Positions 5,548-52,558 of a DNA stretch of 64,000 nt are shown piece after piece. Each line of letters begins with the position of its first letter. The first letter of the stretch is position 1. The notes under the pieces are model-generated. The model saw nothing but the letters and a program-made list of their open reading frames with translations. It was not told the DNA's origin and ran no database searches. This DNA is from Candidatus Onstottus arcticum. GTDB taxonomy: Bacteria > Acidobacteriota > Blastocatellia > UBA7656. The position numbers were made by a program, and so were the translations under genes. The stretch covers positions 84,209 to 148,208 of the forward strand of contig JBBPIE010000013.1 of assembly GCA_038040485.1 (NCBI GenBank), written 5' to 3'.

Positions 5548-6459
5548 ATGAAAGGTTTGGTGCACATGATGAGCCAACTAACACCCCCCTACCCTCTGAT
5601 TTATGATGGACTCTGCGAAGGTCAAGTCATTCCCTTTCTCGGTTCAGGAGCTTCGCTTGGTGGTCGAGAGAAGGACGCGAAGTGGGAGGAAGGCGTAGCA
5701 ACATATCTTCCGACAGCAAGCGAACTAGCGGACTATCTGGCCGACAAGACGGTGTTCCCTAAAGGCGAACCGCGCGACCTCGCGAAAGTGGCCCAATACT
5801 CGAACGCTGTTGGTGGACGCAACTGGCTCGACCAAAAACTGTACAACATCTTTAAGGTCAACTATCAACTCACATCGCTGCACAACTTTCTCGCCGGCCT
5901 GCCCTCACCGCTTTTGATTGTCACCACGAACTATGACGACCTCATTGAGCGTGCTTTTGAAATCAAAAAGCGTGCATATGATCTGGTAATCCATACGACT
6001 CACCCGGACTACAGTGGCAATCTCCTGTGGTGGCCGCACGGCAAACGAAAGCCGCGCGAGGCGGTACCGAATGAATTGGACATTGATCTCAGCGCGGTCG
6101 CAGTGATCTATAAGATGCACGGTGCAGTCGATCGCCGCGATCCAGCGCGCAGTCAGTATGTCATCACCGAAGATGATTACATCGACTTTCTCACTCGCAT
6201 GACTTCAGACAGCGCTATTCCCGCAATATTTTCTCAGGCATTCCAACAACGGCCCTTTTTGTTCCTTGGCTACGGTCTGCGGGACTGGAACCTGCGAGTA
6301 GTCTTGAACAAAATCGAGAAGGATATGCAGAGACCGGGAGATATCACCTCTTGGGCAATTCAGCATGATCCCTCCCCGTTGGAGCGGTTATTTTGGCAAA
6401 AGCGAGATGTGCAGGTCTATGACATGACGATTGAGGAGTTTGTGGCGAAACTCCTCTAG
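5548..6459 (+). CDS. SIR2-like (SIR2_2 family) protein, putative NAD+-consuming effector
   Basis: FLGSGAS, TTNYDDLIE, MHGAV and LFLGYGLRD motifs matching the SIR2_2 (PF13289-type) signature; GC visibly lower than the flanking genes. Confidence 0.8.
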   Translation: MKGLVHMMSQLTPPYPLIYDGLCEGQVIPFLGSGASLGGREKDAKWEEGVATYLPTASELADYLADKTVFPKGEPRDLAKVAQYSNAVGGRNWLDQKLYNIFKVNYQLTSLHNFLAGLPSPLLIVTTNYDDLIERAFEIKKRAYDLVIHTTHPDYSGNLLWWPHGKRKPREAVPNELDIDLSAVAVIYKMHGAVDRRDPARSQYVITEDDYIDFLTRMTSDSAIPAIFSQAFQQRPFLFLGYGLRDWNLRVVLNKIEKDMQRPGDITSWAIQHDPSPLERLFWQKRDVQVYDMTIEEFVAKLL

Positions 6460-6489
6460 CATTACGAACCAAAATACCGGGATGCAACG

Positions 6490-9117
6490 ATGACGATGTC
6501 GGAAGCTCAGCGCGGCTCACCTTACCTGGGTCTCATACCATACGACGAACAAGACGCGCCCTTCTTCTTTGGGCGCGAGAAAGAGACGCGGATCATCACG
6601 GCTAACTTGTTCGCCTCGCGGCTGACGCTGTTGTATGGCGCGAGCGGAGTCGGCAAGTCGTCGGTCCTGCGGGCTGGCGTCGTCCACCAATTGCGCCCAC
6701 GCAAAGACGTCCTTGCAGTGGTGTTCAGCGACTGGCAGAACGACCCGCTCACGAAGCTCAAGACCGCGGTTGCTAAGGCATCGTCGGACGCCACCGACAA
6801 GAGTGATCCGCTGCCGGATTCCTCATCGCTGGCCGAATACCTGGCAGGGTACAGCGCAAGACTCAATGGCCGCTTGATGATCATCCTCGATCAGTTCGAG
6901 GAGTATTTCCTCTATCACGCGCAACAGGACAGTCAAGGCACGTTCGACGTCGAGTTTCCGCGCGCGGTCAATCGCCCGGGCTTGCGTGTCAATTTTCTCA
7001 TCTCCATACGCCAGGATGCCTTGGCGGAATTGGATCGTCGTTTCAAAGGGCGCATCACCAATCTCTTCAACAACCGCCTGGAAGTCAAACACCTCAGCCG
7101 CGAAGCAGCAAAAGCAGCAATTGAGAAACCCATAGATGAATACAATAGCCGTTACGTGACAGAAGGCGAGGAGTTCAGCATCGAACCGGATTTGGTCAAC
7201 GAGGTTCTGATCGAGCTTCAGGAGGACGGCGCCTCTCAAGCACCTCACAAGCAAGTTGACTTCAGGAGCGGGAAACGCGAAGCGCTCATTGTAACCCCCT
7301 ACCTGCAACTGCTAATGGCCCGCATATGGGAGAAGGAAATAGAAAACAACTCGCGCGTCCTGCGGTTGAAGACGCTAAAGGGCCTCGAAGGTTTGCGGAA
7401 CATAGTTCAGGTTTACTTGAACAATGCAATGGATGCGCTATCTCCCAGGGAGCGAGAGATCGCGGCGGATATGTTCGACTACCTGGTCACTCCATCGGGG
7501 ACAAAGATCGCATACATGGCATCCGATCTGGCCATAAAGACCAAGAGCGGGCCGGAGCAGCTTAAGCCCGTGATGGATAAACTCTCCACCGATTTTCGTA
7601 TTTTGCGCTCAGTAGACCCGCCGCTCGACCGACCAAACGAGTTACGTTATGAGGTGTACCACGACGTGCTTGCGGTTGCGGTTTTAATTTGGCAAGAGGA
7701 ATACCGGCGGAACCAGGTGGATGCCGAAGCCAAGAAGAAGGCGAAAGAACAACAGCGCCAAGCCGAGGAGAAAGCAAGGGCTGAAGAGCAAGCAAAGGCT
7801 AACGCAATCCTGCGGCGATGGCTTTGGGCGCTGGCGTTCATGACTCTGTTGGCGATGAGCGCTTCGGTGATCGCGTATAAGCAATCCAGGAATGCACGTG
7901 CTAGTGAGCAGAAGGCGCTGGATGCTCAGAAGAACGCCGAGGAAAAACGGGAGTCGGCACTTCAGGTGCTCAGATTTTATGACGATGTCATACCTGTTTC
8001 CGATGGCTTGCTTTATGGAGGCAATCAGCGGGTGACCTTGGATCGGCTGGAAAGATCGCTGCAAGAGCATAAAGATAAGGGCAACCTCAGCGGAGAAGGA
8101 ATAACGCTCGCCAAGATCGGTGACTTTTACCATTTGCTCAACAAGGATACCGCGGCGCAGGAGTACTATGAACGCGCCTTGCCGATCTTAGAGAATGTTC
8201 TTGGAAAGGATCATCTTTACGTAGCCACCATCCTGGATAAATTGGCGACAGTTTACCTCAATCAGGGCAACTCGCTGAACTACTCCAAAGCTGAGCCGCT
8301 TGAAGAGAGGGCATTAATGATTCTGAAGCAAGCCCTGGGAGCGGAGAATGTCGACGTAGCCACTGCGCGCAACAATCTGGGGCTCATCTACCTCAACTGG
8401 GGCAAGTACGCCGAGGCCGAGCCGCTTTTCAACGAGGCAATCGATATTGACCTGAGGATTCATGGGAAAAACGATGTTGAGGTAGCCAATGGCCGAAACA
8501 ACCTGGCCCTGCTCTACCTCAAGCAGGGCAGGTATGCAGAGGCCCAGTCTCAGTTTGAGCAGGCACTCGACATCTGGAAGAAGAATCTAGGCGAGGAGAA
8601 TACGACTGTAGCGGATGGTCTCACCAACCTGGCTGAGGTCTACCGCAAACAGGGGCAGTACATTGAAGCGGAGCCGCGCGCAAGAAGAGCATTTGAGATT
8701 TGGGAGAAGCAAGCCTCGGCGCCCGACGATCCCGATTTGGCTCAAAGCTTAAACATCCTGGGAATGATCTATAGCGATGAAGGTAGATTCTCCGAAGCCG
8801 GGCCGCGTCTCAAACGAGCCTTAGCGATCCGTGAGAAAGCTCTTGGGCTCGAACATGAAAAGCTGGCAATCAGCCTCAACGCGCTGGCAGTGCTTTCTTA
8901 CAGGCAAGGCAAGAACGCCGAAGCAGAGCAGTTTTTCAAGAGAGCCCTCAAGATTCGCGAGAGCGCGCTGGGGCCAGATCATCCCGATGTGGCGGAGACC
9001 CTTCGAGACTATGCGACGCTGCTGCGCTCGAGCGGTAGGGAAGCTGAAGCTGCAGTCATGGACGCCCGTGCAGAAGCCATCCGGACCCGGCACGCAGAAG
9101 AGAATCGAAGAAACTGA
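6490..9117 (+). CDS. nSTAND-type P-loop NTPase with an internal TM helix, a charged coiled-coil and C-terminal TPR repeats
   Basis: N-terminal SPYLGLIPYDEQDAPFFFGREKE motif followed by Walker A GASGVGKSSVLRAG; K/E/A-rich segment, hydrophobic helix WLWALAFMTLLAMSASVIAY, then at least six TPR_10/12-like repeats; 30-bp gap after the SIR2 gene. Confidence 0.75.
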   Translation: MTMSEAQRGSPYLGLIPYDEQDAPFFFGREKETRIITANLFASRLTLLYGASGVGKSSVLRAGVVHQLRPRKDVLAVVFSDWQNDPLTKLKTAVAKASSDATDKSDPLPDSSSLAEYLAGYSARLNGRLMIILDQFEEYFLYHAQQDSQGTFDVEFPRAVNRPGLRVNFLISIRQDALAELDRRFKGRITNLFNNRLEVKHLSREAAKAAIEKPIDEYNSRYVTEGEEFSIEPDLVNEVLIELQEDGASQAPHKQVDFRSGKREALIVTPYLQLLMARIWEKEIENNSRVLRLKTLKGLEGLRNIVQVYLNNAMDALSPREREIAADMFDYLVTPSGTKIAYMASDLAIKTKSGPEQLKPVMDKLSTDFRILRSVDPPLDRPNELRYEVYHDVLAVAVLIWQEEYRRNQVDAEAKKKAKEQQRQAEEKARAEEQAKANAILRRWLWALAFMTLLAMSASVIAYKQSRNARASEQKALDAQKNAEEKRESALQVLRFYDDVIPVSDGLLYGGNQRVTLDRLERSLQEHKDKGNLSGEGITLAKIGDFYHLLNKDTAAQEYYERALPILENVLGKDHLYVATILDKLATVYLNQGNSLNYSKAEPLEERALMILKQALGAENVDVATARNNLGLIYLNWGKYAEAEPLFNEAIDIDLRIHGKNDVEVANGRNNLALLYLKQGRYAEAQSQFEQALDIWKKNLGEENTTVADGLTNLAEVYRKQGQYIEAEPRARRAFEIWEKQASAPDDPDLAQSLNILGMIYSDEGRFSEAGPRLKRALAIREKALGLEHEKLAISLNALAVLSYRQGKNAEAEQFFKRALKIRESALGPDHPDVAETLRDYATLLRSSGREAEAAVMDARAEAIRTRHAEENRRN

Positions 9118-24848: not shown

Positions 24849-24982
24849 TGGTTCGCTCCTTGTGAATCAATGCCTGGCTGAGGCGATTATACGGCACGGC
24901 AGGTCGCACGACCAGAACTACAGCACGCCACTGGATTATTGTATTCAGGATGCTTCTTTCGGCGGGTCGAACGGCGAATTGA

Positions 24983-25951: not shown

Positions 25952-26074
25952 CTTGAGGACTCCAGGACAAACGGCGTCGACGGCAAATCGTGAACGGGCA
26001 CCGCTGGTTGGCGGACGTTTTGAGCGAGAGGATGCCGTCCAACCGGCGGGCGCTTCGACGAGCCGCCCGCATCC

Positions 26075-26284
26075 CTACTGCTGGGTTTCGACCTCTTCCT
26101 CTTCGCCGGTGCCGAAGTAGAAAGCTACCGAACAGTTCTCAGCGCAAAACTTCTGACCATACTTGCGGAAGGCGCAATTCTCGCACACAGGCTTGAAGCA
26201 CTGAACGCATCTCGCGAGCCTGAACACCTTCGATGCCTTCTTACACTTGATGCAAACTGCCATCGCAAGACGAAAGTATACCAA
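26075..26284 (-). CDS. Small Cys-rich zinc-ribbon-like protein
   Basis: Four CxxC pairs (CIKC, CVQC, CENC, CAENC) within about 60 aa. Confidence 0.3.
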   Translation of the reverse strand: MVYFRLAMAVCIKCKKASKVFRLARCVQCFKPVCENCAFRKYGQKFCAENCSVAFYFGTGEEEEVETQQ

Positions 26285-26438
26285 ACGGGTCAGTGAGGGC
26301 TAGAGTTATTTGCCGGGGGCAGCGACAGCCGGATGAAGTGAACCGCGAGAGCCGATGAAAGTGGCTAGCCGTGAGGTGCAAGCCGCAACGGGCGCGCCCA
26401 CTCGGACGCGCCCGCCGCCTTCCCAAACACCGATTGGA

Positions 26439-27278: not shown

Positions 27279-27596
27279 GGGTTCCTCCAGGTTGTTCAGA
27301 TCTGAGTGACGTTTTCAAATGAGGCCGCGAAAGCGGACCTTCAGGTTTGACAAATCCCGCTCGTGTCGAGCGCGCTATCTTATGTACTTGCCCTGCTCAA
27401 GTCAAGCGGCGGAATGAGACGGGTGCGAGTCAGGTTCTTTTGGTTGAATCCCCGAGGGATGCCGGAATAAAGCCGAGGGGTGAGTCCGCGAACCCGTGGA
27501 GACGCGGCGTGAAGAAGGCGCCTCACCGTCGAAGAGGGTGACGGCCTGTGCCACGCAACGAGACACAGGGTTCGCATGCCGCCACATTCCGGGCGG

Positions 27597-30061
<2,465 letters not shown>

Positions 30062-40132: not shown

Positions 40133-42886
40133 ATGCCTAAGCTGTCCGGAACTGCTCGCCTTCGGCTGAGCGTGGCTCTTGCTTTGGTCCTCCTTGCGTC
40201 CGGCTTCGCCGATTCAGTCTTGTTGACGGCAAGCGCGGCGCAAAACTCAGCCGCTTCCTCCAAAACGAAAAACAGCGTCAGTGAAGAGACTTCTCGTCCC
40301 CGCTCGGTCACTGCCAACGAGAAGAGGCCCGCTGAGCCGGTCGTTCGAATCGCGCTGATGACCGACCAGACATCAGTCTCGCTCAGCTCCGATTCAGGTC
40401 TTGTCGTGAGCCGCTCGTCGCCCGGCGCGCGAGACGACAGAATCGCAAACGGACTCCTGGGAGCGCAGGCATCCCTGCCTGCTGCGATCCGCATTGAGCT
40501 GCGCGAACCCTCGCGAGCCGCAGCATCCCGCGCGCCTGCGTATCGCATCGCCGTCGAGTCGACCGACGATCTTCGCCACGCGCGCAAGCTGGCCGGTGAA
40601 CTGACCAGCAAGTTCGGCGAGCAAGCGGCTGTCGCTTTTGACTCAAAAGAAAAAGAGTACGACGTCGTCATCGGACGATTCGAGGAGCAGGCCGGCGCAA
40701 ACCCGTTGCTCGCGCGGCTGCGCCGCTCGGGTTACGCCGACGCCCGAATCGTGAAGGAAACGAACGAACCGGAATCTTTGGGGAAAGACAGCAACTCGAA
40801 GCAGGCCAAAGCGAAATCTCAAAGCGATAAAGATGATCGCTCGACGAGCAAGTCTGCGCGAACAACGCAGATCGCCGCCGTCGAATCCGGCAAACTGATC
40901 GCTGCAAACGACGAGCGCCTCATCGTCTTCGCTGCGAAAGCTTCGAGCGATCGATTCGACAGGGCTGATCGTGAGCCGAAGAAGCCAGGCAATGACGAAC
41001 CCGAGTCCGACGAACGTCGCGAACCGAACTCGCGCGCGAACACCACCGATAAGCCGCTCGCGGTCCGCGTTGGCGACAAAGAGTACCGCGGCGAGATTCA
41101 TCTGGTTATGAACCGGCGGGGCCGGATCAACGTGATCAACGCCGTGTCGATGGAAGACTATCTTCGCGGCGTCGTTCCGATGGAGCTTTCACCGGGACAG
41201 TATCCGGCAATCGAAGCTCTCAAGGCCCAGGCGATAGCCGCGCGAACCTACGCGCTTGCGAATCAGGATCAGCACGGTGATGAAGGCTTCGATTTGTATG
41301 ACGACGCTCGCTCGCAGGTCTACGCGGGGCTGACCTGCGAGCGCGAGCTGAGCAACCGCGCGGTCGAAGAGACTCGCGGGATGATTGCGGTAGTCGTCGA
41401 TGAAGCGGGACACGCCTCGCCGATTCAAGCCTTGTACACTGCGAACTGCGGCGGCAGCACTGAAAACAACGAAGCGGTGTTCGGCGGCGCTCCGCTTCCC
41501 TACCTGCGCGGCGTAGCTTGCGCGCCTGATCGCGCTACCGTTGCCGAACGCGACATTGCGACCAGTCGAATCGCGGATCGCTCTGTTGATAATGAAGACC
41601 GGCCGATTCTTCGCAGCGCCGCGCTTCTCGAAGTGCTCGGCTTTCAGTTGCCACAACGCCTGACAAGCAGCTACCTCCGGAGCTCACCCGATCAGGCTGA
41701 AGTGACAAGATGGATCGAGCGAGCAGCCAGACTGACTCAGAAAGACAAGCCGTCCTTCGGGCGCGGCGACGCGACTCGATTGCCGGGATTCGCGCGGCTG
41801 GTAGCGGCAGCGGTTTACGGCGAAGGACGCGCGAGTTTGCTGTTGCCGCCTGCCGACGTGGATTACCTGCTCGGCGGGCTCGGCGGCGAGAGCCTGCCTC
41901 GGGAATCGCGCGCCGACGTTGCGATGCTGCTGAAGGATGGGGTGCTAGCCGCGCCGTCGCTCGACACTCGCACGCCGCTCACTCGCGCGCAGATTATCGA
42001 GACGCTCGCGCGAGCGCTCAGCCTCAAACCTCAAGTTCCAAATCTCCGATCTCAGATCTCGGATCTGAGATTTGCAACGGCGCAACCGTCAGACAGCGGG
42101 CGGGTCTTGATTGCTTCAACCGCTTTGGCGAGATCCGAACCCCGCGCAAAGGAGCAGCGCGCCGCTGACAACACCGCTATGCAGACCAATCGACTTCCAC
42201 CTTCGAAGAGCGGAACGCGGTCGAGCGAGCTTACGACTCGGGAGATCTCGGCGCGCCAGTCACCACACGCAACGAGTTCACAGCCTAAGTCGATTTCGCA
42301 AACAGATGGCTTTGAGGTCGAAGACAACGCGTGGCTGTTTCGAAGCATGGGCGGCGAGAGCTACGCAGTAGACCGGGTTGCGTTGATCGGCGGCGAGCGC
42401 ATCATTTACCACTTGAACACGCGAGGGCGGATCGATTTCCTGGAAGCGACGCCTTCCGAGCGCGGCGCTTCGAGTGATCGCTTCTCGAGCATCGCGCAAT
42501 GGAATGTGCGATTGACGCGCGACGAGATGGAACGGCGGCTTGCGCGATCTCGAGTCAACGTCGGCAAGCTAGAATCAATCGAGCCGGTCGCGTTCAGCAC
42601 GTCGCATCGCGTGACCGAAGTCGAAGTAACCGGCGACGAAGGTCACGCCCGATTGCGCGGCCGCCAGATCATCGGCGCACTCGGTTTGCGAGAGAATCTG
42701 TTTGTTGTAGACGCGGAAAAGGACTCGCGAGGAGAAGTGACCGCGTTCGTGTTCACCGGCCGCGGCTGGGGTCACGGAGTCGGGTTGTGCCAGACCGGCG
42801 CGTTTGGCCTGGCGAAAGAAGGCTACTCTTACACGGCGATTCTTCAGAAGTACTACACGGACGTGAAAATCCAAAAGGCTTATTAG
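40133..42886 (+). CDS. SPOR-domain plus SpoIID/LytB-domain protein
   Basis: Signal peptide; SPOR-like region (YRIAVEST..EYDVVIGRFE..A..L...GY.DARIV); SpoIID domain (AVSMEDYLRGVVPMEL, AQAIAARTYAL, FDLYDD..SQVYAG); contains an in-frame copy of the REP-like unit at about 40455-40485. Confidence 0.8.
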   Translation: MPKLSGTARLRLSVALALVLLASGFADSVLLTASAAQNSAASSKTKNSVSEETSRPRSVTANEKRPAEPVVRIALMTDQTSVSLSSDSGLVVSRSSPGARDDRIANGLLGAQASLPAAIRIELREPSRAAASRAPAYRIAVESTDDLRHARKLAGELTSKFGEQAAVAFDSKEKEYDVVIGRFEEQAGANPLLARLRRSGYADARIVKETNEPESLGKDSNSKQAKAKSQSDKDDRSTSKSARTTQIAAVESGKLIAANDERLIVFAAKASSDRFDRADREPKKPGNDEPESDERREPNSRANTTDKPLAVRVGDKEYRGEIHLVMNRRGRINVINAVSMEDYLRGVVPMELSPGQYPAIEALKAQAIAARTYALANQDQHGDEGFDLYDDARSQVYAGLTCERELSNRAVEETRGMIAVVVDEAGHASPIQALYTANCGGSTENNEAVFGGAPLPYLRGVACAPDRATVAERDIATSRIADRSVDNEDRPILRSAALLEVLGFQLPQRLTSSYLRSSPDQAEVTRWIERAARLTQKDKPSFGRGDATRLPGFARLVAAAVYGEGRASLLLPPADVDYLLGGLGGESLPRESRADVAMLLKDGVLAAPSLDTRTPLTRAQIIETLARALSLKPQVPNLRSQISDLRFATAQPSDSGRVLIASTALARSEPRAKEQRAADNTAMQTNRLPPSKSGTRSSELTTREISARQSPHATSSQPKSISQTDGFEVEDNAWLFRSMGGESYAVDRVALIGGERIIYHLNTRGRIDFLEATPSERGASSDRFSSIAQWNVRLTRDEMERRLARSRVNVGKLESIEPVAFSTSHRVTEVEVTGDEGHARLRGRQIIGALGLRENLFVVDAEKDSRGEVTAFVFTGRGWGHGVGLCQTGAFGLAKEGYSYTAILQKYYTDVKIQKAY

Positions 42887-42971: not shown

Positions 42972-45900
42972 CTATTGCCCGCTGGGAAGCGTGGGCCACA
43001 ACCTCACCGAGCCGTCTTTCGTGCTGGTAATCATTATGCGATTGTCTGGCGAAAACGCGATCGAATCAAGCGCCTGTTTTGCAGGCTCACTATAGAGCGT
43101 GACCAGCCTGCGATAAGACGCGGTACTCCACAACGTGACCTGTCCGCCGATGTCTCCCGTGGCGAGGACTTTGGAGTCCGCGGAAAACGCCATGCAGGAG
43201 ATGGAACTCTGAAGACCGCCGAGCCAGGCGAGCGGCCCGCCAGGTTCAAGATGTTCCATATCCCACAATTCTACAGATGGGCCGAGCTTCGTATTGCCGG
43301 ATATCGCAAGGAATCTGCCGTCGAGCGAAAAAGTTGCGAGTAATGTGGCGCCTCCTCCCACAGCGAAAGGGCCCTTGAATTGTCTCGGTGCGCCCTGTGC
43401 GTCCGGAGCATTCCTTCCCGAAGCCTTCACCAGAGTCATAATGAGCTGTCGAGAGCGAGCATCCCACATCTCAGCGGTCAATCCATAATCTTCGCTTGAC
43501 CCTATGACAACCATTTTGGAGCTGTCGGGCGAAAAGACTAGCGAGTGAACCGAGAGGATATGAGCATTGTCCAGGGTCGATGCTGTTTTAGAAGCGATAT
43601 CCCACAACTCCACTTTTCCCTTAGTATCAGCGTCGTCAAAACAGGCGAGTGTCTTTCCATCAGGCGAAAACTCCATACCAGATACCTTGCCGCTGTCAGT
43701 CGGAGCTTTAAGAACGAAGGGCTGATCCTGCAAATCTTCGTTCCACAACTCCAAGCCCCATCCGGTGTGGACGCTGTTGTCGTTTTCTTTCGTTTCGATC
43801 CAGTTAAGCGCGACTACGTTCTTTCCATCAGGTGAGACTACGAGCTCCCTAACAGCTTTTCGGCCCTTCTCAGGCGGATTAACGTTGAAAGTGGCCGTCA
43901 ACTTTAGCGGCTGAGTTTGCCATAGTTTTATCGTGCTGGCGCTGCTCAGAATCGCGACAAATCGTCCGCCAGGAGAGTTGCCGACAGTGGGATAGGGTTG
44001 CGCAAACTCAGCGGAAAGTTTCAATTCTTGCCGCGACTCAGCGTCCCACATCCTGACTTGGGCTGTTTCCCTCGTGCCGTCGGTTATGAAGCGTCCCGTG
44101 TCATAGCGAGCGAGCATCAAAACCGACTTACTGTCCGGTAAGATGAAGGGGGTTTTGATGCCTCTATCGCCGCTTTCGACGGCGACGGAATCTCGGGGAT
44201 TGCGCGTGTTCCAGAGTCTCACCTTTCCGGCATCGTTTGCTGCCAACTTCTCTCCGTCGGGAGAAAAGGTTAACGAGGTTATCCAGCCCTCTTGTCCCAA
44301 GAGCGGAGCTATCAACTCAGGAGACTCTCGCTCCCCGGGTCGTGGCGCTTTATATAGCCGCAATGTGTTATGGCCGCCAATGGCAAACTTGTTTCCCTGA
44401 GGAGCGAAAGCCATCACGGTAGGCGAGAATTCCGGAGCGGCAAGAGCATCCGCGAATCCTACCGCGGCCAACGGATCCTTCATCTTTGTGTCAAACACTA
44501 TGAAGCTGTTTCCGATATTAGTCCCCAGGATGATTGTTTTACCATCGGGTGAAAACCTCACTGACTCCCCACCCCCTGGGCTATCCAGGGAAAGCCGTCC
44601 CGAATCGACGTCGAAGAGCCGCAGCGTGCCGTCCCAGCCGACTGTAGCGAGCGTCTTTTCATCGGGCGACAGCGCAAGGTCAATTACGCTTCCTGTGACG
44701 CCAGCAATCTCCATCCGTTTCTTCGACGTTGCAAGATTCCACGCCACAACGCGACCCTCATTGCTGATCTCTCTCGCGCTGCCCGTAAAGAGCGTCTTCC
44801 CGTCGCGCGAGAAGACAAGCGAGGTGATCCGCAAACCATCTCCCGGAAGCACCGCAGGGGCTTCGGTTGACGTGAGTTTGTGCAACATCACCCGCGAGTC
44901 GCCGCTGCAGGCCAGAATGCTGCCGTCGGGCGAGACCGCCAAAACGTTAACAGGAACACCTCCGGTTGGAAGAGTTCTCAACTCTTGCATGGTTGAAGCG
45001 TCCCAGAGCTTGACCGCATGGTCGCCTGCGGTTGCCAGATACTTTCCGTCGGGAGAAAAAACCACGTCTCTTACAATTCCATCGCCGCAGTCCAGCGTTC
45101 CCGCTTCCCTGTGATAAAGCCAGTTTAGATAGCCCCACTCGAAGCTGCGCAAATCCTCCTGATTGGTCGAAGGATCTTCAAGCAACTCCCGCGCGTGCTG
45201 GACGTTCTCGTCGTAGTAAGCCTCCTGCGCGAGATTGATATTCGCCGCGTAAAGCAACTTGCGCGACCGCTCGCCTTCTGCCCTGGCCCTGGCTTCTCCT
45301 TCTTCGGCTCTCTTTTTTTCTCTCCCTGCTTCTGCCGCCGCCGATTCAGCCTTCTCTTCATTATCCTTTGCGATGCGCGCCTGGTAGCCGGCCTGCTCCT
45401 CTGCAAGACCCGCTGCTACTGAGTTCTGATAAGCAGTATCGGCCGCCTTCTCAGCGTTATTCCGCTCCTTATCGGCCCTGTCTCGCTGCTCATTGGCTTC
45501 CACCAAAGCGGCCTCAAGTTGCTGCTTTGATTCATTCGCCTCGACTCTTTTGCTGTTTGCGAAAACAAGCGCACCGAGCGATAAAAGGAACGCGAGAGCG
45601 AAAATGAGAGCTGTCAATCGCGTTCGCTTAATCTCTTTCCTGCGCTGCGCTTCACGGTCGCGCGCTTCTTTGTCGCGCGCCTCGCGGCTTTCGTCCAGGA
45701 AATTCATCGCCGCTTCAAACTCCGGATAATAACGACGCGCCCACGTCTTGTTAGGCTTGCTTCCATCGCGCCAATCCAGCGCAAGCTGCAAATCAGGGTC
45801 GCGATATAATCCCGCTTCTCCCTTCTCGTGCAAGACCGATGTTTCGGCCAGTCGGCGATAGATGCGGGCGGACCGCGCTTCTTCATCGACCCACGCTTTC

Positions 45901-47120
45901 AATCGTTCCCAGTTGCGAATCAAGCTCTCGTGCGAAATGTCTACAAGCGAGTCCACGTTGAGCGGAGTCCCGGCGGGCGGCATAAGAAACGATCTGTCTT
46001 CACGGCGAAAGACTTCGATGACGGCGATCACTTCCGCTTCGCTTGCCTCAGCCAGCGCGCAAAGCTCCTTCAATTCAATCGGGCGGCGTATCTCCCGGTT
46101 GTCCGACCCCTTCTCGGTGAGACCTTTGAATATCTTTTCGGCAATCGCGCCGCTCCGCTCGCCCTTCAGATCGTTGTAAGCTTCATCGGCATGACGAGAA
46201 AGCGCCGCGCTCATCTCTCCTATCGCCTCGTAGTGCTGAAGGTCGATAGGCTCTCTGTCTTGATTCTCTTCCTTCCATCTATTCCACGTTCGCATGAGCG
46301 CGTGCTGAAGGATGGGCAATTGATCGGGATTGTCTCCCATGTCATTCAGCAGCCGATTGACCAGGCGCGGCGCGATGCCGGCTCCGCAGACGGCAGCCGG
46401 TCCCGTGATGGCTTCTCGCCGCTGATCGCGCGTGAGCCGCGGAATCAAGTACTGTCCTTCGTTGATGGCTTCGGGCAGGTCCCAGAACAACGAACAGTCG
46501 CCCAGAAAATCAGAGCGCATTGTTAGCACTACATAAATCGGAACGTCTCTTTGGCGCGCTGCTTCCAGCAACAGCTTAACGAAGGCTGCCGCTTCGTTCT
46601 GGTATCGCTCGCTTGCGGCGACCTGCGCAAAGCGAAACAACTCTTCAAACTGGTCAACTACGACGAGCAGGTGTTCGTGAAGACCGATCTGCGCGAGGCG
46701 AACAGCTTCGACAAGGCCGAGGCTGCCGCGTCGCAAGGTTGACTCGATCATCGTCGCCTGAACTGGCGCGGTTCCGCCGCCTGGAGAGCCGAACAGGCCC
46801 GACTCGTCGATTGCGCGGGCGAGGTTGCCAATCGGATCGTTGCTCGGCCTCAGGATTGCGATTCGCCAATCCGAATCCGCGCTCGTCATGAACCCGCCAA
46901 ACAGCGCGGGCAGCAATCCCGCGCGCACGAGCGATGACTTGCCGCTTCCCGAAGTGCCAACCACAGCCATAAAGCGCGTGCTGACGAGCTTGCGAAGCAA
47001 CTGCTCGCTTTGGCCATCGCGCCCGAAATACAACAGGCTTTCTTGAAACTCGAATGGCCGCAAGCCGGGAAAGGGATTAGAAGGGGTTTCCGTTTGCGTC
47101 ATCATGTAGTCGGCTATCAT
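42972..47120 (-). CDS. nSTAND-type P-loop NTPase with an internal TM helix, a long coiled-coil and a C-terminal WD40 beta-propeller (at least 14 repeats)
   Basis: N-terminal NPFPGLRPFEFQESLLYFGRDGQ motif and Walker A GTSGSGKSSLVRAG; hydrophobic helix LTALIFALAFLLSLGALVFA flanked by R/K/E-rich segments; multiple WD40 repeats (SPDGK.LA..G.D..v.LWD). Confidence 0.8.
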   Translation of the reverse strand: MIADYMMTQTETPSNPFPGLRPFEFQESLLYFGRDGQSEQLLRKLVSTRFMAVVGTSGSGKSSLVRAGLLPALFGGFMTSADSDWRIAILRPSNDPIGNLARAIDESGLFGSPGGGTAPVQATMIESTLRRGSLGLVEAVRLAQIGLHEHLLVVVDQFEELFRFAQVAASERYQNEAAAFVKLLLEAARQRDVPIYVVLTMRSDFLGDCSLFWDLPEAINEGQYLIPRLTRDQRREAITGPAAVCGAGIAPRLVNRLLNDMGDNPDQLPILQHALMRTWNRWKEENQDREPIDLQHYEAIGEMSAALSRHADEAYNDLKGERSGAIAEKIFKGLTEKGSDNREIRRPIELKELCALAEASEAEVIAVIEVFRREDRSFLMPPAGTPLNVDSLVDISHESLIRNWERLKAWVDEEARSARIYRRLAETSVLHEKGEAGLYRDPDLQLALDWRDGSKPNKTWARRYYPEFEAAMNFLDESREARDKEARDREAQRRKEIKRTRLTALIFALAFLLSLGALVFANSKRVEANESKQQLEAALVEANEQRDRADKERNNAEKAADTAYQNSVAAGLAEEQAGYQARIAKDNEEKAESAAAEAGREKKRAEEGEARARAEGERSRKLLYAANINLAQEAYYDENVQHARELLEDPSTNQEDLRSFEWGYLNWLYHREAGTLDCGDGIVRDVVFSPDGKYLATAGDHAVKLWDASTMQELRTLPTGGVPVNVLAVSPDGSILACSGDSRVMLHKLTSTEAPAVLPGDGLRITSLVFSRDGKTLFTGSAREISNEGRVVAWNLATSKKRMEIAGVTGSVIDLALSPDEKTLATVGWDGTLRLFDVDSGRLSLDSPGGGESVRFSPDGKTIILGTNIGNSFIVFDTKMKDPLAAVGFADALAAPEFSPTVMAFAPQGNKFAIGGHNTLRLYKAPRPGERESPELIAPLLGQEGWITSLTFSPDGEKLAANDAGKVRLWNTRNPRDSVAVESGDRGIKTPFILPDSKSVLMLARYDTGRFITDGTRETAQVRMWDAESRQELKLSAEFAQPYPTVGNSPGGRFVAILSSASTIKLWQTQPLKLTATFNVNPPEKGRKAVRELVVSPDGKNVVALNWIETKENDNSVHTGWGLELWNEDLQDQPFVLKAPTDSGKVSGMEFSPDGKTLACFDDADTKGKVELWDIASKTASTLDNAHILSVHSLVFSPDSSKMVVIGSSEDYGLTAEMWDARSRQLIMTLVKASGRNAPDAQGAPRQFKGPFAVGGGATLLATFSLDGRFLAISGNTKLGPSVELWDMEHLEPGGPLAWLGGLQSSISCMAFSADSKVLATGDIGGQVTLWSTASYRRLVTLYSEPAKQALDSIAFSPDNRIMITSTKDGSVRLWPTLPSGQ

Positions 47121-47122
47121 CG

Positions 47123-48685
47123 CTACGCTCCCTTCGCTTTCTTGACTCGTTCGAGAAAGGGCTCCAACTGCTCAGGCGAGAACGCCTCGTAGTTCTTGAT
47201 CACGAGTGAATCGTGATCCCTGACCCGCTCTTTGGAATCGGTTGGCGGACCGCTTATGTAGATCGCTTTCACAGCTAGCGGCTCCGCGCGGCCATATCCC
47301 GCGATCTTGAGCAATTCGCGCTGCTTCATGCGCAGCCAGAGCTCGTTGGCGCGCCCGTAAAAGATCATCACCGCGTCGCACATCAACAGGTTGTCTTTGT
47401 GGTCCTGGATTATCTGGGTTTCATCGCCTTCGGTCGCGGGCAAAGTCACATCTACGCCTTTGTCAAAAAGATAGTCTTCGATGGGTTTGACCGCATCCAT
47501 ATCCTGTCTGTCACAGATCAAATACACGGACGCGGTGTGTCCATTGCTGGCCGCCGACGCGCTGGAGTCAGGTATGGCCTGGCGGTTCAGCTTCTCTTGA
47601 ATAACGGTCTTCAGATCTTCAAGCTTTGTTTCGAGCAGGTCTGTGGCTTTCTGACTGCTGAGTCCCAATCGCAACTTATTGACGAATCTTTGCTGAGACT
47701 CGTCTTGCGCCTTAAGCCCAACCGGCATCCAGATTATTCGCTGCAACCCGTCGCGACAGTTGGCAGACAACTCGTGCTGCAACTCGATCATTGAACGGCT
47801 CTCGCCTTCAGCGATGACGCCGTAGTGCTCGCCGATCAGATGCACCGCAAGCGTACTGCGGCTGAGGTAATTGCCAACCTCTTGCTCGAATGCCGCCCCG
47901 ATCAAGGGCAAGGCTTTGTCGGGAAGCACCTCGTAGCCGCGTAGCTGCAAATCGCGTTTGATCGTGTCCCGTTGTTCTGTAAGGTCGGATGAAGTCTCCG
48001 CCAGGTAGATAGTTGCCTCTGAAGGCGAGGCGGGCGATTCTGCTGGTCCGGAACCGCTGCGCAAAGTCTCAATCAACTGTTTGATGTCATAGGCCAGGTC
48101 GTCCAGCTTTTCCCAATAGCGAATGTCCCGAGCCGGAACGACTTCCGAATTGAACTCGTGAGCACGGTCGCGCATCTGGTCGTACTCGTAGAACTCATAC
48201 CCGAGCGCGCCTTGTAGAACCGGCGGGTGTTGCCCGCGGGAGATGTGGGTCTTCACGACTTTGAAGATTCGCAACTTGTCGCCGACGCGAAGCCCGGCGT
48301 TCATTTCCGCGCGCCGCGAAAATTCATCCAGCTCTCTCAGGCACCATTCGGATTTGACGTACCGAGGCGAAAGGATGGAGACGAGAATCGCCGACTGTCC
48401 GACGCGGTCAATGAGCGTGTCGGCAAAGATATCGTTGCCTTGCAATTTGCGGTCGCGCCAGATTCGCGCCTCCTCGCCAAGCAGTTGAGCAAGACGGACC
48501 CTGAGCCTTTCGTGAAGCGCCTCGACCCATCCCGTCAGTCCCTTGTCGAGAGGCTGATTATCGATGTGCGCGTAGCTGATAAAGATGTCGTGCTTGAAGG
48601 TTGGCATAGCTTCCACATCATCCTTGAAGACATATCGCCGGACTGGACGCCGTAAGATCGCGTTGTCGAGAAACTGCATCCGCAC
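47123..48685 (-). CDS. TIR-domain protein followed by two further TIR/SLOG-like alpha/beta domains; putative NAD+-targeting effector
   Basis: HDIFISYAHIDN...SILVSILSPRYVKSEWCLREL TIR signature at the N-terminus; two downstream segments with a TIR-like beta-alpha pattern (ATIYLAETSSD..., ASVYLICDRQD...); 2-bp gap to the downstream NTPase gene. Confidence 0.75.
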   Translation of the reverse strand: MRMQFLDNAILRRPVRRYVFKDDVEAMPTFKHDIFISYAHIDNQPLDKGLTGWVEALHERLRVRLAQLLGEEARIWRDRKLQGNDIFADTLIDRVGQSAILVSILSPRYVKSEWCLRELDEFSRRAEMNAGLRVGDKLRIFKVVKTHISRGQHPPVLQGALGYEFYEYDQMRDRAHEFNSEVVPARDIRYWEKLDDLAYDIKQLIETLRSGSGPAESPASPSEATIYLAETSSDLTEQRDTIKRDLQLRGYEVLPDKALPLIGAAFEQEVGNYLSRSTLAVHLIGEHYGVIAEGESRSMIELQHELSANCRDGLQRIIWMPVGLKAQDESQQRFVNKLRLGLSSQKATDLLETKLEDLKTVIQEKLNRQAIPDSSASAASNGHTASVYLICDRQDMDAVKPIEDYLFDKGVDVTLPATEGDETQIIQDHKDNLLMCDAVMIFYGRANELWLRMKQRELLKIAGYGRAEPLAVKAIYISGPPTDSKERVRDHDSLVIKNYEAFSPEQLEPFLERVKKAKGA

Positions 48686-48967: not shown

Positions 48968-49519
48968 GTGCGACCGAGCATCATCACGTTCAATCAAGCA
49001 ATGCTCTCTCTGACTAAACTCATTCTCTTGTCGGTCGCGGTCATCGCAGTCGGCGGCTTCTTTCTGTTACGCGCGACCGCGAGACCCGAGGCGCCTCGCC
49101 AACCAATCAACTTCGATCATTGGCAGCACGTTTCATCAAAGGAAGGACCTGAGCTCGACTGCACATTCTGTCACGAACACGTGGACAAGTCTGCGCATGC
49201 GACGATCCCGAATGCTGAAACCTGCATGACCTGTCACGAGACGATCAAGCCCGACAGCGCCGAAGTGCAAAAGCTCGCGGCATTCTCAAATCGCAAAGAA
49301 CAACCGCCGTGGCAGCGCGTCTACTGGTTTGAGCGCGACGCTAACGTGTTCTTCTCGCACAAGGCGCACAACCGAGCCGGTGTTGAATGCTCATCTTGTC
49401 ACGGCGAAGTAGGCACATCCCATCGAGTGGGACGTGAGGTAAATCAAACAATGGGCTGGTGCATCGATTGCCACCGCCGGCGAGCCGCAAGCGTGGATTG
49501 CTACGTGTGTCATAGATAG
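48968..49519 (+). CDS. Membrane-anchored pentaheme c-type cytochrome (ActA/NrfB-like)
   Basis: Five CxxCH motifs (CTFCH, CMTCH, CSSCH, CIDCH, CYVCH); N-terminal TM helix. Confidence 0.85.
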   Translation: MRPSIITFNQAMLSLTKLILLSVAVIAVGGFFLLRATARPEAPRQPINFDHWQHVSSKEGPELDCTFCHEHVDKSAHATIPNAETCMTCHETIKPDSAEVQKLAAFSNRKEQPPWQRVYWFERDANVFFSHKAHNRAGVECSSCHGEVGTSHRVGREVNQTMGWCIDCHRRRAASVDCYVCHR

Positions 49520-49621
49520 GTTTCTAGTTTGTGGTTTCTGGTTTCTGGTTCCACAGAACAGGTCAAGCGGAGCCGAACGAAAAACCACAAACCAGAAACT
49601 AGAAACCAGAAACTAGAAACC
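49520..49621. repeat. Hairpin with a roughly 30-bp stem built from tandem GTTTCTRG heptamers, between the first and second genes of the ACIII-like operon
   Basis: gtttctagtttgtggtttctggtttctggttcc ... accacaaaccagaaactagaaaccagaaactagaaacc; it ends 5 nt before the ATG at 49626. Confidence 0.8.
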
Positions 49622-49625
49622 GCAT

Positions 49626-51812
49626 ATGAAGCGACGCGAGTTTATAATCCTAAGCAGCGTAGGAGCTACGAGCGCTTCGCTGCTCTCCGCTTGCGGACAT
49701 CCCGAGGAGAAACTAATCCCGGCTCTCATCCCTGACGACCAATACGTGCCGGGGATCGACTACTGGAAGGCTTCAACTTGCGGGATGTGCCCGGCCGGCT
49801 GCGGGATCATCGTTCGAACTCGCGAGCATAAGGCAAACAAGATCGAAGGCAACCCGCTTCATCCGGTCAATCGCGGAGCGTTGTGCGCGCGGGGACAAGC
49901 GGGGCTCGAAGTGCTTTACAACCCCGACCGCATCAAAGGCCCGATGAAGCGCGTCGGCGAGCGCGGCGAAGGCAAGTGGCAAGAGATCAGTTGGGAACAA
50001 GCAATCGGGACGCTGACAGACATCCTGCGCGAGGCAGGCGATCTTAACCGAGCTTTGTTCATAACCAGCGAGGCTGAGGGAGTGACTGCGCGGGTGGCCA
50101 GCCGATTGATGCAGGCTTGCGGGCAGACCTTTGTGGCTGGGAATCCCCAGCAGACAGAACTGCGGGGCGTTTATCCTGACCTCCTGCGCGGTGTAGTGAA
50201 GCACGGCGAGGCTTCACCCGACATCGCAAACGCTACCTATCTGCTTTCATTCGGCGCGCGCTTTCTGGAAACGTGGAAATCGCCGGTCATGCACTCGCTT
50301 GCTTATGGCGCGTTTCGAACCAGTCACGGCAAGGCGCGCGGAAGATTTGTTCACGTTGAGCCGCGGATGTCGCTAACCGCAGCCAACGCGGACGAATGGA
50401 TTCCCGCGGCGCCCGGCTCCGAAGCGCTCCTCGCGCTGGCGATGGTTCAGGTAATCGTTCGAGAAGGTCTGAACAAGGTGGCTGTATCCGACGATTCGCG
50501 AAGGATGCTCGAGGAATTCTCGCCAGAGAATAATGCCGCAATGATCGATGTTCCGGCCGAGAGAATCATTCGGGTCGCCCGCGCATTTGCCGGGGCGCAA
50601 CGGCCTCTGGCGATCGGAGACTTGCCATCTCCTTCCGACGCCGCGGTTCATCTGCTTAACACGATCGTCGAAAACTTAAACAAACCAGGAGGAGTACTGC
50701 TCTTCGACGTTGGAACCAGATCACCTGACCTCCTTGAGACTCAGGCCAACGCGTCGATCCCCGATGAGCAGCTTAAGAAGCAACCCCCTCGCGATAGCGT
50801 TGATGTCATAAGCCAGTTCTTGCAAACAGCAAAACAGCCCTATCAAATAGTCATGAGCCACGGCTTCAATCCAATGTTGGCGAGAAATGGGCGCGAAGAA
50901 CTACTAGCTGCGCGTTTCATCGTCGGCTTTTCGTCATTCATGGACGAGACGAGTGAAGTGGCCGATCTCATTCTCCCAGATCACAGCTACCTCGAGCGCT
51001 GGGACATACACACGTCGAATGGTCCGGATGGGCGAAAGGTTTTGTCGTTGACCCAACCCGTACTCGAGCCTCAACTCAATACCCGGCACACAGCCGATGT
51101 CTTGCTCTCGCTTGCGCGAGAGATCGGCGGCAAAGTCGGCGAAGCGCTGCCGTTCGAGTCCGCGAAGAACATGATTGAAAAGGGCGCGGGTGACCGCTTG
51201 AAGGATTTCGGCGGCGAGAAGGCTGATGCGGCGTGGCTTGAGCTGACCGAGAAAGGACTGGTTTCGGCCGCGCTGCCACCTGCGAAACCCGAAGCTCCTG
51301 AACAAGGCCCTATCTCGCTCGACTCATTTTTTCTAGGTCTGATCCGCCGGAGTTCCAAATCGGCGAGTAGCGTCGAGTACCCGTTGACTCTACTCGTTTA
51401 CGAACATGCCACACTCGGCGACGGATCAGCAGCCAACTTGCCTTCGATCCAGGAACTACCTGATCCACTGACTTCGGCTATGTGGGGGAGTTGGGTTGAG
51501 ATCAACCCGAAGACCGCCGCAATGATGGGCATTGCTGACGGCGATCTCGTTGAAGTGACAACCGGCACCGGCTCGGTTCGCGTTCCGGCGCTTCTGTACC
51601 CAGGGATCAGGCCCGATTGCGTCGCGCTGCCAACTGGTCAGGGCCATTCGAGCTATGGGAGATACGCGCGTGGTCGCGGGGTGGACGCCGGTGTCCTCCT
51701 TCGCAATAACGGAAAGGGTCCTGTGAGATCGAGACTCACCAAGATCGGAGGTCGCGCTCAGCTCATTCGGTTTGGCACTGAGTTGATGGAACACATGGAA
51801 TCGAAGCGCTAA
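49626..51812 (+). CDS. Molybdopterin-oxidoreductase-family (MopB-like) subunit with a Tat-type signal and lipobox (ActB1/PsrA-like)
   Basis: KRREFII twin-arginine motif, LLSAC lipobox, N-terminal 4Fe-4S Cys cluster CGMCPAGCG...C; 728 aa. Confidence 0.8.
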   Translation: MKRREFIILSSVGATSASLLSACGHPEEKLIPALIPDDQYVPGIDYWKASTCGMCPAGCGIIVRTREHKANKIEGNPLHPVNRGALCARGQAGLEVLYNPDRIKGPMKRVGERGEGKWQEISWEQAIGTLTDILREAGDLNRALFITSEAEGVTARVASRLMQACGQTFVAGNPQQTELRGVYPDLLRGVVKHGEASPDIANATYLLSFGARFLETWKSPVMHSLAYGAFRTSHGKARGRFVHVEPRMSLTAANADEWIPAAPGSEALLALAMVQVIVREGLNKVAVSDDSRRMLEEFSPENNAAMIDVPAERIIRVARAFAGAQRPLAIGDLPSPSDAAVHLLNTIVENLNKPGGVLLFDVGTRSPDLLETQANASIPDEQLKKQPPRDSVDVISQFLQTAKQPYQIVMSHGFNPMLARNGREELLAARFIVGFSSFMDETSEVADLILPDHSYLERWDIHTSNGPDGRKVLSLTQPVLEPQLNTRHTADVLLSLAREIGGKVGEALPFESAKNMIEKGAGDRLKDFGGEKADAAWLELTEKGLVSAALPPAKPEAPEQGPISLDSFFLGLIRRSSKSASSVEYPLTLLVYEHATLGDGSAANLPSIQELPDPLTSAMWGSWVEINPKTAAMMGIADGDLVEVTTGTGSVRVPALLYPGIRPDCVALPTGQGHSSYGRYARGRGVDAGVLLRNNGKGPVRSRLTKIGGRAQLIRFGTELMEHMESKR

Positions 51813-51853
51813 CGTTCCCTGCTCGAGTCGAGCCGGGTGATCAGCTAAGGAAA

Positions 51854-52558
51854 ATGACTGAATCTCAAAACAAGAAGCCTCAATGGGCGATGGTGATCGA
51901 CCTCGATCGCTGCACCGGATGTGAAGCTTGCGTTGTGGCTTGCCGTGTCGAGAACAACATCCCAACCGTCGGACCTGAAGAAGCCGCGAAGGGACGCTCG
52001 ATCAACTGGATTCGAGTCGAGCGCTACTTCGAAGGCGAATACCCCGATGTGAAGGCCAGGTTCATGCCGGTCTTGTGTCAGCACTGCGAGGAAGCTCCGT
52101 GCGAGCCGGTGTGTCCGGTCTACGCGACGTATCACACCGACGAAGGTTTGAACGCGCAGGTCTACAACCGCTGTGTCGGGACTCGGTACTGCGCGAACAA
52201 CTGCCCGTACACCGTTCGCTTCTTCAACTTCTTCGATCCGGTCTGGGACGCGCCGCTGGAAAAGGCTTTGAACCCGGAAGTGTCGGTGCGAACCGGCGGT
52301 GTGATGGAGAAGTGCACCTTCTGCATTCAACGCATTCGCAAGGGCGAAGACAAAGCCAAAGACGAAGGCCGCGAGGTGCGCGACGGCGACGTCACGCCGG
52401 CGTGTGTTCAGACCTGCGAGACGAAGGCTATGTACTTCGGCAACATCGCCGATCCGGAGAGCGAAGTTTCGAAGCTGTCGAAGAGCAATCGAGCGACACG
52501 GTTGCTCGAAGAGCTGGGAACAAAACCGCGCGTGATCTATTTGAACAAAGGCGATTGA
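51854..52558 (+). CDS. 4Fe-4S ferredoxin-type iron-sulfur subunit (ActB2/PsrB/NrfC-like)
   Basis: Four Cys clusters (CTGCEACVVAC, CQHCEEAPCEPVCP, CVGTRYCANNCP, CTFC...C). Confidence 0.85.
   Translation: MTESQNKKPQWAMVIDLDRCTGCEACVVACRVENNIPTVGPEEAAKGRSINWIRVERYFEGEYPDVKARFMPVLCQHCEEAPCEPVCPVYATYHTDEGLNAQVYNRCVGTRYCANNCPYTVRFFNFFDPVWDAPLEKALNPEVSVRTGGVMEKCTFCIQRIRKGEDKAKDEGREVRDGDVTPACVQTCETKAMYFGNIADPESEVSKLSKSNRATRLLEELGTKPRVIYLNKGD

Follow-up and report, generated by a model that had tools for sequence, protein, structure and literature searches.

A predicted NLR-like conflict module in Candidatus Onstottus arcticum, pairing a three-domain TIR-like protein with a membrane-anchored nSTAND1-WD40 protein

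A stretch of 64,000 nucleotides from the genome of Candidatus Onstottus arcticum (Acidobacteriota, Blastocatellia; assembly GCA_038040485.1, contig JBBPIE010000013.1, positions 84,209 to 148,208), analysed as a whole and called the window hereafter, contains two adjoining genes on the minus strand. They encode a three-domain TIR-like protein, the putative effector, and a 1382-residue protein in which a nSTAND1 nucleoside triphosphatase (NTPase) module is followed by a single transmembrane (TM) helix, a helical stalk and WD40 repeats. With somewhat better than even confidence, the pair is read here as a predicted NLR-like module of biological conflict, acting in immunity or cell death, whose membrane-anchored switch would pass a signal from outside the cell inwards, to a cytosolic NAD+-cleaving enzyme (NADase). 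The original prediction, made from the sequence alone, had recorded the transmembrane helix but not its consequence, namely that the WD40 sensor would lie across the membrane from both the NTPase and the TIR protein.

Organization of the gene pair

The two genes and their junction are located as follows.

42972..47120, minus strand: sensor/switch gene, 1382 residues; nSTAND1 NTPase, transmembrane helix, helical stalk and WD40 propellers (open reading frame and Pfam)
47123..48607, minus strand: effector gene; three-domain TIR-like protein, 494 residues from the ATG at 48607 (open reading frame, NCBI model P0001, orthologs)
47118..47134, minus strand: gene junction; AAGGGAG at 47128-47134, stop codon TAG at 47123-47125, 2-nt spacer, ATG at 47118-47120 (sequence)

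The longest open reading frame (ORF) of the effector, 47123..48685 on the minus strand, opens with a GTG at 48685 and spans 520 residues, the length originally given for this gene. The likely product is shorter. Translation most likely begins with the ATG at 48607 (M27), giving 494 residues and removing 26 codons, because NCBI model P0001, 100% identical to the effector, starts at M27, and nearly all orthologs start at the matching place, about 5 residues ahead of the FxDDIFISY strand. Domain limits and key residues of the effector are numbered from M27.

As originally described, the TIR gene and the 1382-residue gene are 2 bp apart on the same strand. The junction reads ...AAGGGAGCG TAG CG ATG..., and the Shine-Dalgarno-like AAGGGAG is located 7 nt 5' of the ATG of the NTPase gene; the two genes are co-transcribed and probably translationally coupled. 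A scan for sigma-70 promoters, which is not informative for Acidobacteriota, found none upstream of the TIR gene.

The NTPase/sensor protein and its topology

The following elements were identified in the product of the downstream gene.

45837..47075, minus strand: nSTAND1 NTPase module, residues 16-428 (Pfam PF20703, E 8e-98, 328.9 bits against a cutoff of 27.1)
46932-46958, minus strand: Walker A motif, GTSGSGKSS (read from the translation)
46641-46670, minus strand: Walker B motif, LLVVVDQFEE (read from the translation)
45561..45617, minus strand: single transmembrane helix, LTALIFALAFLLSLGALVF, residues 502-520 (Kyte-Doolittle 19-residue mean 2.58)
45156..45554, minus strand: Ala/Glu/Arg-rich helical stalk, residues 523-655 (A29 E24 R12 of 133 residues)
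42975..45098, minus strand: WD40 region, the variable sensor, residues 675-1382 (Pfam WD40, E 2.9e-49, and propeller models)

The architecture thus agrees with that first proposed, from the nSTAND module through the basic segment, which is the stretch RRKEIKRTR directly before the helix, and the one strong transmembrane helix to the stalk, probably a coiled coil. At least 14 WD40 repeats had been expected; 13 strict and 2 degenerate blades were counted, i.e. about 14-15, probably forming two propellers.

At E <= 1e-3, an exhaustive HMMER search with residues 1-660 of this protein detected 45,494 clusters, defined at the 50% identity level; a threshold of E <= 1e-30 leaves 11,851. The best 150 were used as family representatives. 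A transmembrane helix is found in 149 of these 150, at a median position of 508, and the mean number of Lys and Arg in 15 residues is 5.8 before the helix versus 3.0 after it. Second segments, scored as transmembrane in 11 relatives, are amphipathic helices inside the NTPase module and not membrane helices. For almost all of these 150 proteins, the matched region starts within about 15 residues of the N-terminus, and the NTPase subfamily therefore has no effector fused at that end; a N-terminal extension is present in a few relatives, such as P0266.

The switch is constant and the sensor variable. In the five closest of seven orthologs, identity is 71-82% for the nSTAND1 module versus 17-50% for the WD40 region, and stalk length also varies among orthologs. 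Elsewhere in the family, the region following the helix is made of TPR repeats in Terriglobia and Vicinamibacterales, of TPR repeats and a Peptidase_M74 murein endopeptidase domain in a Pyrinomonadaceae metagenome-assembled genome (MAG; L022), and of WD40 repeats, a PDZ domain and two F5/8 type C domains in a Verrucomicrobiales protein of at least 2628 residues (L074), whose gene runs off the end of its locus. Domains of the murein endopeptidase, PDZ and discoidin types are characteristic of the cell envelope. In 28 TPR-type loci, of the kind found in Terriglobia and Acidoferrales, a third gene directly follows the nSTAND1-TM-TPR gene (e.g. L039:12336-13493, plus strand); its product carries a signal peptide and ends in ...YRYSF, like an outer-membrane barrel. 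This third gene has no Pfam match and is absent from the window.

A topology with the N-terminus inside and the sensor outside is favoured by the charge bias around the helix, by the periplasm-type domains of the homologs, by the secreted product of the third gene and by the cytosolic location of the ATP and NAD+ that the NTPase and the TIR domain respectively require. A precedent for a cytosolic module, a transmembrane helix and external repeats is also available in the kinase-TM-WD40/TPR receptors of Planctomycetota (PMC11032199). The NTPase is therefore probably placed inside, and the WD40 sensor outside, the cytoplasm.

Three TIR-like domains in the effector

Three beta/alpha domains, comprising residues 1-185, 197-345 and 357-494, were delimited in an AlphaFold2 model of the effector (40 homologs, mean predicted local distance difference test score, pLDDT, 75). 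A Kyte-Doolittle scan found no hydrophobic segment, and the protein is soluble. The domains and their key residues are listed below.

48053..48607, minus strand: domain 1, canonical TIR (Pfam TIR_2, Foldseek, phmmer, Glu of the orthologs)
48332-48334, minus strand: codon of the predicted catalytic Glu of domain 1, E92 (E118 in the 520-residue numbering)
47573..48019, minus strand: domain 2, DUF4062-type TIR-like (Pfam DUF4062, KpSwz alignment)
47777-47779, minus strand: codon of Q277, the Gln at the DUF4062 catalytic position (78/79 orthologs)
47126..47539, minus strand: domain 3, five-stranded beta/alpha, flavodoxin-like (fold search)

The canonical TIR signature claimed for the start of the protein is supported both by sequence and by fold. 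Pfam TIR_2 matches residues 34-125 with 55.5 bits (cutoff 28) and Pfam TIR matches with 29.4 bits (cutoff 21.3). Foldseek relates domain 1, with a probability of 1.0, to the TIR domains of SNC1, RPP1, RUN1, SARM1 and SPARTA, at a TM-score of 0.5-0.6 when normalised to the target. In a phmmer comparison with the grapevine RPV1/RUN1 TIR domain (E 5.6e-6), SEWCLREL stands opposite SRWCLDEL, and the Glu of the RUN1 motif WCLDEL is E100, the residue mutated in PDB entry 7s2z according to its title, when counted with an assumed tag offset. This Glu, on whose presence the original prediction had been made to depend, is kept in 75 of 79 orthologs from several phyla, and the full SxWCxxE catalytic signature is likewise kept in 75 of the 79. 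Domain 1 is accordingly predicted to be one intact TIR NADase domain.

Two further TIR- or SLOG-like segments had also been proposed. Two additional alpha/beta domains of TIR-like type are indeed present, but neither was identified as SLOG specifically. DUF4062 is a TIR-like domain whose NADase activity has been shown, and which acts in abortive infection in Swarozyc and Evangelion and occurs in human TEP1 (10.64898/2026.05.01.722283, 10.64898/2026.06.25.731849). Its catalytic Glu is E97 in KpSwz, E87 in Eva01, where a Tyr follows, and E1008 in TEP1 (same preprints). In the effector of the window, Pfam DUF4062 matches residues 226-303 with 22.1-22.2 bits, below the cutoff of 24.7; domain 2 isolated from four orthologs scores 27-34 bits, above it. 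When the KpSwz chain 10wc_A, an E97A mutant, is aligned to domain 2, the GxRYG and S-x-T motifs are in register and the mutated Ala of SFTEKAFDYA falls opposite a Gln. This residue, Q277, is kept in 78 of 79 orthologs, including a Caballeronia protein of 24% identity. Domain 2 is thus probably a disabled, catalytically dead DUF4062 domain with a Glu-to-Gln replacement.

Domain 3 matches no Pfam family and no PDB sequence. Modelled alone, it reaches a pLDDT of 92.4, and its modelled structure is a flavodoxin-type fold, nearest to TIR and not sharply set apart from neighbouring folds. A profile-profile comparison of the three domains with hhalign was not informative, since the alignment is too shallow (effective number of sequences about 2).

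Pairing and distribution of the two genes

Full-length relatives of the three-domain effector, with 36-77% identity, were found by a scan of one genome per species. In Acidobacteriota they occur in Blastocatellia, Pyrinomonadaceae, Thermoanaerobaculia, Vicinamibacterales, Terriglobia and Acidoferrales; others were found in Verrucomicrobiota and Planctomycetota. In every locus anchored on the TIR gene and with room downstream, a nSTAND1 gene directly follows. The genes overlap by 4 bp in 27 of 67 related loci and are spaced by -47 to +31 bp in the rest, except for one predicted start at +112. Conversely, a TIR_2 gene of 485-556 residues lies just upstream in all three loci anchored on divergent NTPase representatives. 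The pairing of effector and NTPase genes is obligate.

The TIR / nSTAND1-TM-WD40 pair is also carried by plasmids of the cultured Caballeronia strains SBC1 and SBC2. On plasmid pSBC2-4 of Caballeronia sp. SBC2 (L088, record 20529-27929), a DUF4231 gene adjoins the pair and an IS3 transposase is near. Carriage of the pair by phages or viruses was rejected, as the TIR protein has no relatives in IMG/VR; for nSTAND1, only three distant matches in phage records were found.

Other genes recur in these neighbourhoods. TPR-S is a sensor-type repeat domain, and a TPR-S gene lies just upstream of the TIR gene in 21 loci (L039:3100-5025, plus strand; L086:1956-3410); its copy in L039 also matches MAP3K_TRAF_bd. 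In 6 loci, a gene upstream of the pair (L039:5083-6468, plus strand) codes for a protein made of TIR_2, one transmembrane helix and a FGE-sulfatase (C-type-lectin-like) domain, a second layout of external sensor, membrane helix and cytosolic TIR. Variations in number were seen as well. The protein at L085:4528-7944 (P0130) contains two nSTAND1 modules, separated by a block of three hydrophobic helices, and an extra C-terminal helix; two tandem nSTAND1 ORFs follow one TIR gene in a Pyrinomonadaceae MAG (L021:9263-15848); and MAG CAWEPW01 holds the whole pair in two separate copies (L058, L061).

A distant paralogous cassette with SIR2 and TPR

A second pair of this kind is present in the window.

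5548..9117, plus strand: distant paralogous cassette; SIR2_2 gene at 5548-6459, followed by a nSTAND1-TM-TPR gene at 6490-9117 (Pfam, BLASTP)

The product of 5548..6459 matches SIR2_2 (E 4e-28) and, in PADLOC, the SIR2 part of ThsA only; no SLOG domain was found in it by Pfam or PADLOC. The product of 6490..9117 consists of nSTAND1 (E 8e-43), a transmembrane helix at residues 444-462, a charged helix and TPR_12/TPR_10 repeats. The two NTPase modules, expected from the outset to be paralogous, are both of Pfam type nSTAND1 and match each other in BLASTP with 23% identity over 313 residues (E 8e-14); no other such pair of NTPases exists in the window. At this level of divergence the two cassettes are, as judged from their sequences, old paralogues and not a recent duplication.

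The SIR2-nSTAND1 pair with its transmembrane helix also recurs in unrelated surroundings (L090-L092), for example on a Pyrinomonadaceae contig and, beside a transposase, on a KSB1 contig. Since the NTPase modules are homologous and both pairs are conserved elsewhere in different surroundings, the description of the two loci as one chassis, with the NAD+-consuming effector and the sensor swapped, is correct. A Thoeris-like reading, in which the TIR protein would make a signal received by the SIR2 protein of the window, was rejected, because this SIR2 protein lacks SLOG and has a nSTAND1 partner of its own.

Genomic context in the window

The TIR/nSTAND1 cassette lies between a convergent SpoIID/SPOR gene (40133-42886, plus strand, 917 residues) and a divergent operon (48968-52558, plus strand). 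The operon comprises a multihaem cytochrome c gene, a 728-residue ORF and a 234-residue ORF, the latter two resembling, by translation only, a molybdopterin oxidoreductase and a 4Fe-4S protein; its layout resembles alternative complex III. The same neighbours are found in the two closest relatives, whose effectors are 77% identical, and tblastn revealed that the arrangement of SpoIID, cytochrome c and 728-residue ORF is common to the closest one, L006. No mobile element or known defence gene adjoins the cassette in the window.

The region from 43.0 to 48.7 kb had been described as visibly lower in GC content than its neighbours, which was not borne out. The GC fraction of the cassette is 0.562, versus 0.570 for the window, at the 36th percentile of segments of the same size; the left flank (0.588) lies above it and the right flank (0.559) equals it. 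Neither a GC dip nor a signal of horizontal transfer is supported. GC truly drops at one place in the window only, to 0.47-0.50 at 22-24 kb, and a 1061-residue ORF (20859-24044, plus strand) lies there; it has matches to the Type ISP restriction-modification coupler, N6_Mtase and Type_ISP_C domains (E 4e-100), and Pfam found no nuclease or helicase in it.

Rfam detected no RNA family in the cassette region. ARAGORN reported a 96-nt tRNA-Glu (anticodon TTC) at 44136-44231 on the plus strand, in antisense to the codons of the WD40 repeats. As Rfam, at its gathering threshold, recognises no tRNA at this place, the call is most likely spurious.

Comparison with known systems

In the sections of Kaur et al. 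2021 drawn upon here, nSTAND1 is named as the switch of predicted counter-invader systems, whose effectors or adaptor domains are fused to the NTPase protein (PMC8195603). The NTPase belongs to the same clade (PF20703), and the combination of a STAND switch with TIR or other NAD+-processing effectors and repeat sensors is shared; those systems are comparative-genomics predictions only. As described in the same sections, they have effectors or effector-associated (EAD) and Death-like domains fused to the NTPase, whereas here the effector is a separate three-domain protein with no shared adaptor. A conserved membrane helix between switch and sensor is a further difference. Avs and bNACHT proteins have in common with the pair the tripartite logic of effector, STAND and repeats, activation by oligomerisation, and TIR and SIR2 effectors of abortive infection. 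They are, however, single cytosolic polypeptides which bind phage proteins inside the cell; here effector and switch are split over two genes, the switch is anchored in the membrane and the sensor is probably external.

The eukaryotic proteins TEP1, NWD1 and NWD2 (DUF4062-NACHT-WD40) are built of the same parts, i.e. DUF4062, a STAND NTPase and WD40 propellers. In the pair, the NTPase is nSTAND1 and not NACHT, DUF4062 resides on a separate protein and has a Gln where the catalytic Glu would be, and a classical TIR domain contributes the active site. As single genes, Swarozyc and Evangelion are made of DUF4062 and a C-terminal AUX region with no STAND; here DUF4062 stands between two other TIR-like domains, in a protein whose partner is a STAND.

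Membrane-spanning counterparts are found among receptors. The Ser/Thr kinases of Planctomycetota mentioned above likewise join a cytosolic catalytic module, through one transmembrane helix, to long WD40/TPR arrays predicted to be periplasmic (PMC11032199). Planctomycetota and Verrucomicrobiota are common to these receptors and to the pair, but their output is a kinase, while here it would be a STAND NTPase and a NADase. Toll-like receptors provide a functional analogy, and not whole homology, in their external repeats, single transmembrane helix and cytosolic TIR domain activated by clustering; their sensor is a leucine-rich repeat and not WD40, and in the pair a STAND NTPase is interposed between the membrane and a TIR which is separate and probably enzymatic.

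Two other assignments were rejected: the FxsC / FxSxx-COOH system, for which the NCBIfam models FxsC_Nterm and FxSxx_TPR score 56 and 100 bits against cutoffs of 130 and 300, and the EACC1 membrane two-gene system (Kaur et al. 2020), which has other components, a small transmembrane protein and a caspase. Some STAND-type targets of diversity-generating retroelements have predicted periplasmic lectin domains (Doré et al. 2024, PMC10907252). A 2026 survey of 589 STAND clades lists nSTAND, and membrane-anchored forms are not discussed in the passages of it covered here. Among the papers searched, none was found to describe this TIR / nSTAND1-TM gene pair. The parts themselves are familiar, unlike their layout across a membrane, the family size and the half-disabled state of the effector.

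Proposed mechanism and alternative explanations

In the proposed conflict module, the transmembrane helix would put the propellers outside the cytoplasm, in the periplasm, where an external ligand or an envelope event may cluster the receptor. The nSTAND1 modules would then oligomerise at the inner membrane face and assemble the three-domain protein, so that domain 1 could form active TIR-TIR contacts and cleave NAD+. NAD+ would be depleted and the cell would stop growing or die; production of a nucleotide signal is a less likely outcome. Domain 3 and the probably inactive DUF4062 domain may provide scaffolding, docking or autoinhibition. With repeats and NTPase separated by the membrane, the repeats could not fold back to inhibit the NTPase, as is usual for STAND proteins, is known from Apaf-1 and has been proposed for TEP1; activation would therefore have to come from clustering, in the manner of receptor kinases and Toll-like receptors. 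This separation is, we infer, the main mechanistic difference from known STAND proteins.

An effector role for the TIR protein is supported by the SIR2 gene, which occupies the same position next to the paralogous NTPase, both in the window and in L090-L092. A role in conflict is supported by the TPR-S and TIR-TM-FGE genes near related loci and by DUF4231 and IS3 on the Caballeronia plasmid. Several observations weigh on the other side. The topology is derived solely from hydrophobicity and charge bias. Only about 15 residues precede the nSTAND1 domain, with no adaptor domain shared with the TIR protein, and the 10wc_A alignment which places Gln at the DUF4062 catalytic position is, by itself, weak (E 0.76). 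PADLOC (2023 library) returned noise-level matches only (mad3 and mad8, E about 2e-3; ThsB, E 5.5e-3). Housekeeping neighbours, normal GC and a position kept in the two closest relatives look like vertical inheritance and not like a defence island. Genomes usually carry a single copy, and the family is well conserved (36-85% identity), as is seldom the case for defence genes with fast turnover. Finally, a 41%-identical nSTAND1-TM-coiled-coil-WD40 protein on a Runella rosea plasmid (L089:5045-9198) follows genes for an anti-sigma-factor antagonist (STAS) and a RsbW-like ATP-binding protein, with no TIR gene. Such neighbours hint at possible other outputs for this receptor chassis.

The chief rival explanation is a non-immune role in envelope signalling. 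The nSTAND1-TM-repeat receptor would monitor the periplasm (peptidoglycan, state of the outer membrane, nutrients or glycans), and the TIR output would be a messenger, or a tuning of NAD+, for stress or development, with no killing. Much of what has just been listed would fit such a role, namely the synteny among housekeeping genes, the normal GC, the usually single copy conserved at 36-85% across the phylum and the location of the Runella homolog directly after the partner-switching genes for a RsbW-like kinase and STAS, rather than a NADase. The domains which some homologs have outside the membrane (murein endopeptidase, PDZ, discoidin) would fit equally, and the kinase-TM-WD40/TPR receptors are ordinary signalling proteins (PMC11032199). 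On the other hand, the interchangeable partners, TIR and SIR2, are best known as death effectors destroying NAD+, the window encodes no nearby receiver for a nucleotide messenger, related loci lie beside TPR-S, TIR-TM-FGE, DUF4231 and insertion sequence elements, and the sensor diverges much faster than the switch. Envelope signalling is considered rather unlikely.

It is improbable that the protein is a classical cytoplasmic sensor of phage proteins, Avs-like and merely tethered to the membrane, with WD40 repeats that stay in the cytoplasm. Avs and NLR proteins follow the same domain logic, in which an effector, a STAND NTPase and a repeat sensor are combined (PMC13581612), and cytosolic bacterial Apaf-1-like STANDs do have WD40 sensors; but a single transmembrane helix separates NTPase and WD40 region in nearly the whole set of representatives, so that only one of them can be cytoplasmic. 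Periplasm-type domains at the same position in homologs and the lack of any Avs match in PADLOC also disagree with it. Very improbable, finally, is a three-domain TIR protein acting as a non-enzymatic adaptor or scaffold, which would recruit unlinked effectors like the TIR-TIR assemblies of animal Toll-like receptors. Two of its three domains have no demonstrable active site, given the Gln of domain 2 and the lack of a family for domain 3, yet the SxWCxxE signature of domain 1 is whole in nearly all orthologs, and the paralogous cassette has an enzyme, SIR2, in this position.

Implications

A more far-reaching form of the conflict-module interpretation is entertained tentatively, at clearly less than even confidence: the pair may be an outside-in innate immune receptor of soil phyla, activated by clustering, in which a periplasmic propeller or TPR array signals through one transmembrane helix and a cytosolic STAND module to a TIR NADase, as a functional counterpart of Toll-like receptor signalling. 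If so, the receptor could sense phage attachment, DNA injection, envelope damage or attack by a neighbour before the cytoplasm is reached. To our knowledge, all characterised bacterial STAND/NLR-type immune sensors act inside the cytoplasm, and fold-back inhibition is used by all STAND/NLR proteins studied so far. A sensor beyond the membrane, with TIR or SIR2 NADases as output, would widen the known triggers of bacterial innate immunity and death pathways.

The family, with its 45,494 clusters, would offer a simple model of how a STAND switch signals across a membrane. The three-domain effector, combining one live TIR, one DUF4062 domain with the Glu-to-Gln replacement and one orphan TIR-like domain, would be a natural case for the regulation of TIR assembly, and the presence of the pair on plasmids of cultured Caballeronia makes it experimentally accessible.

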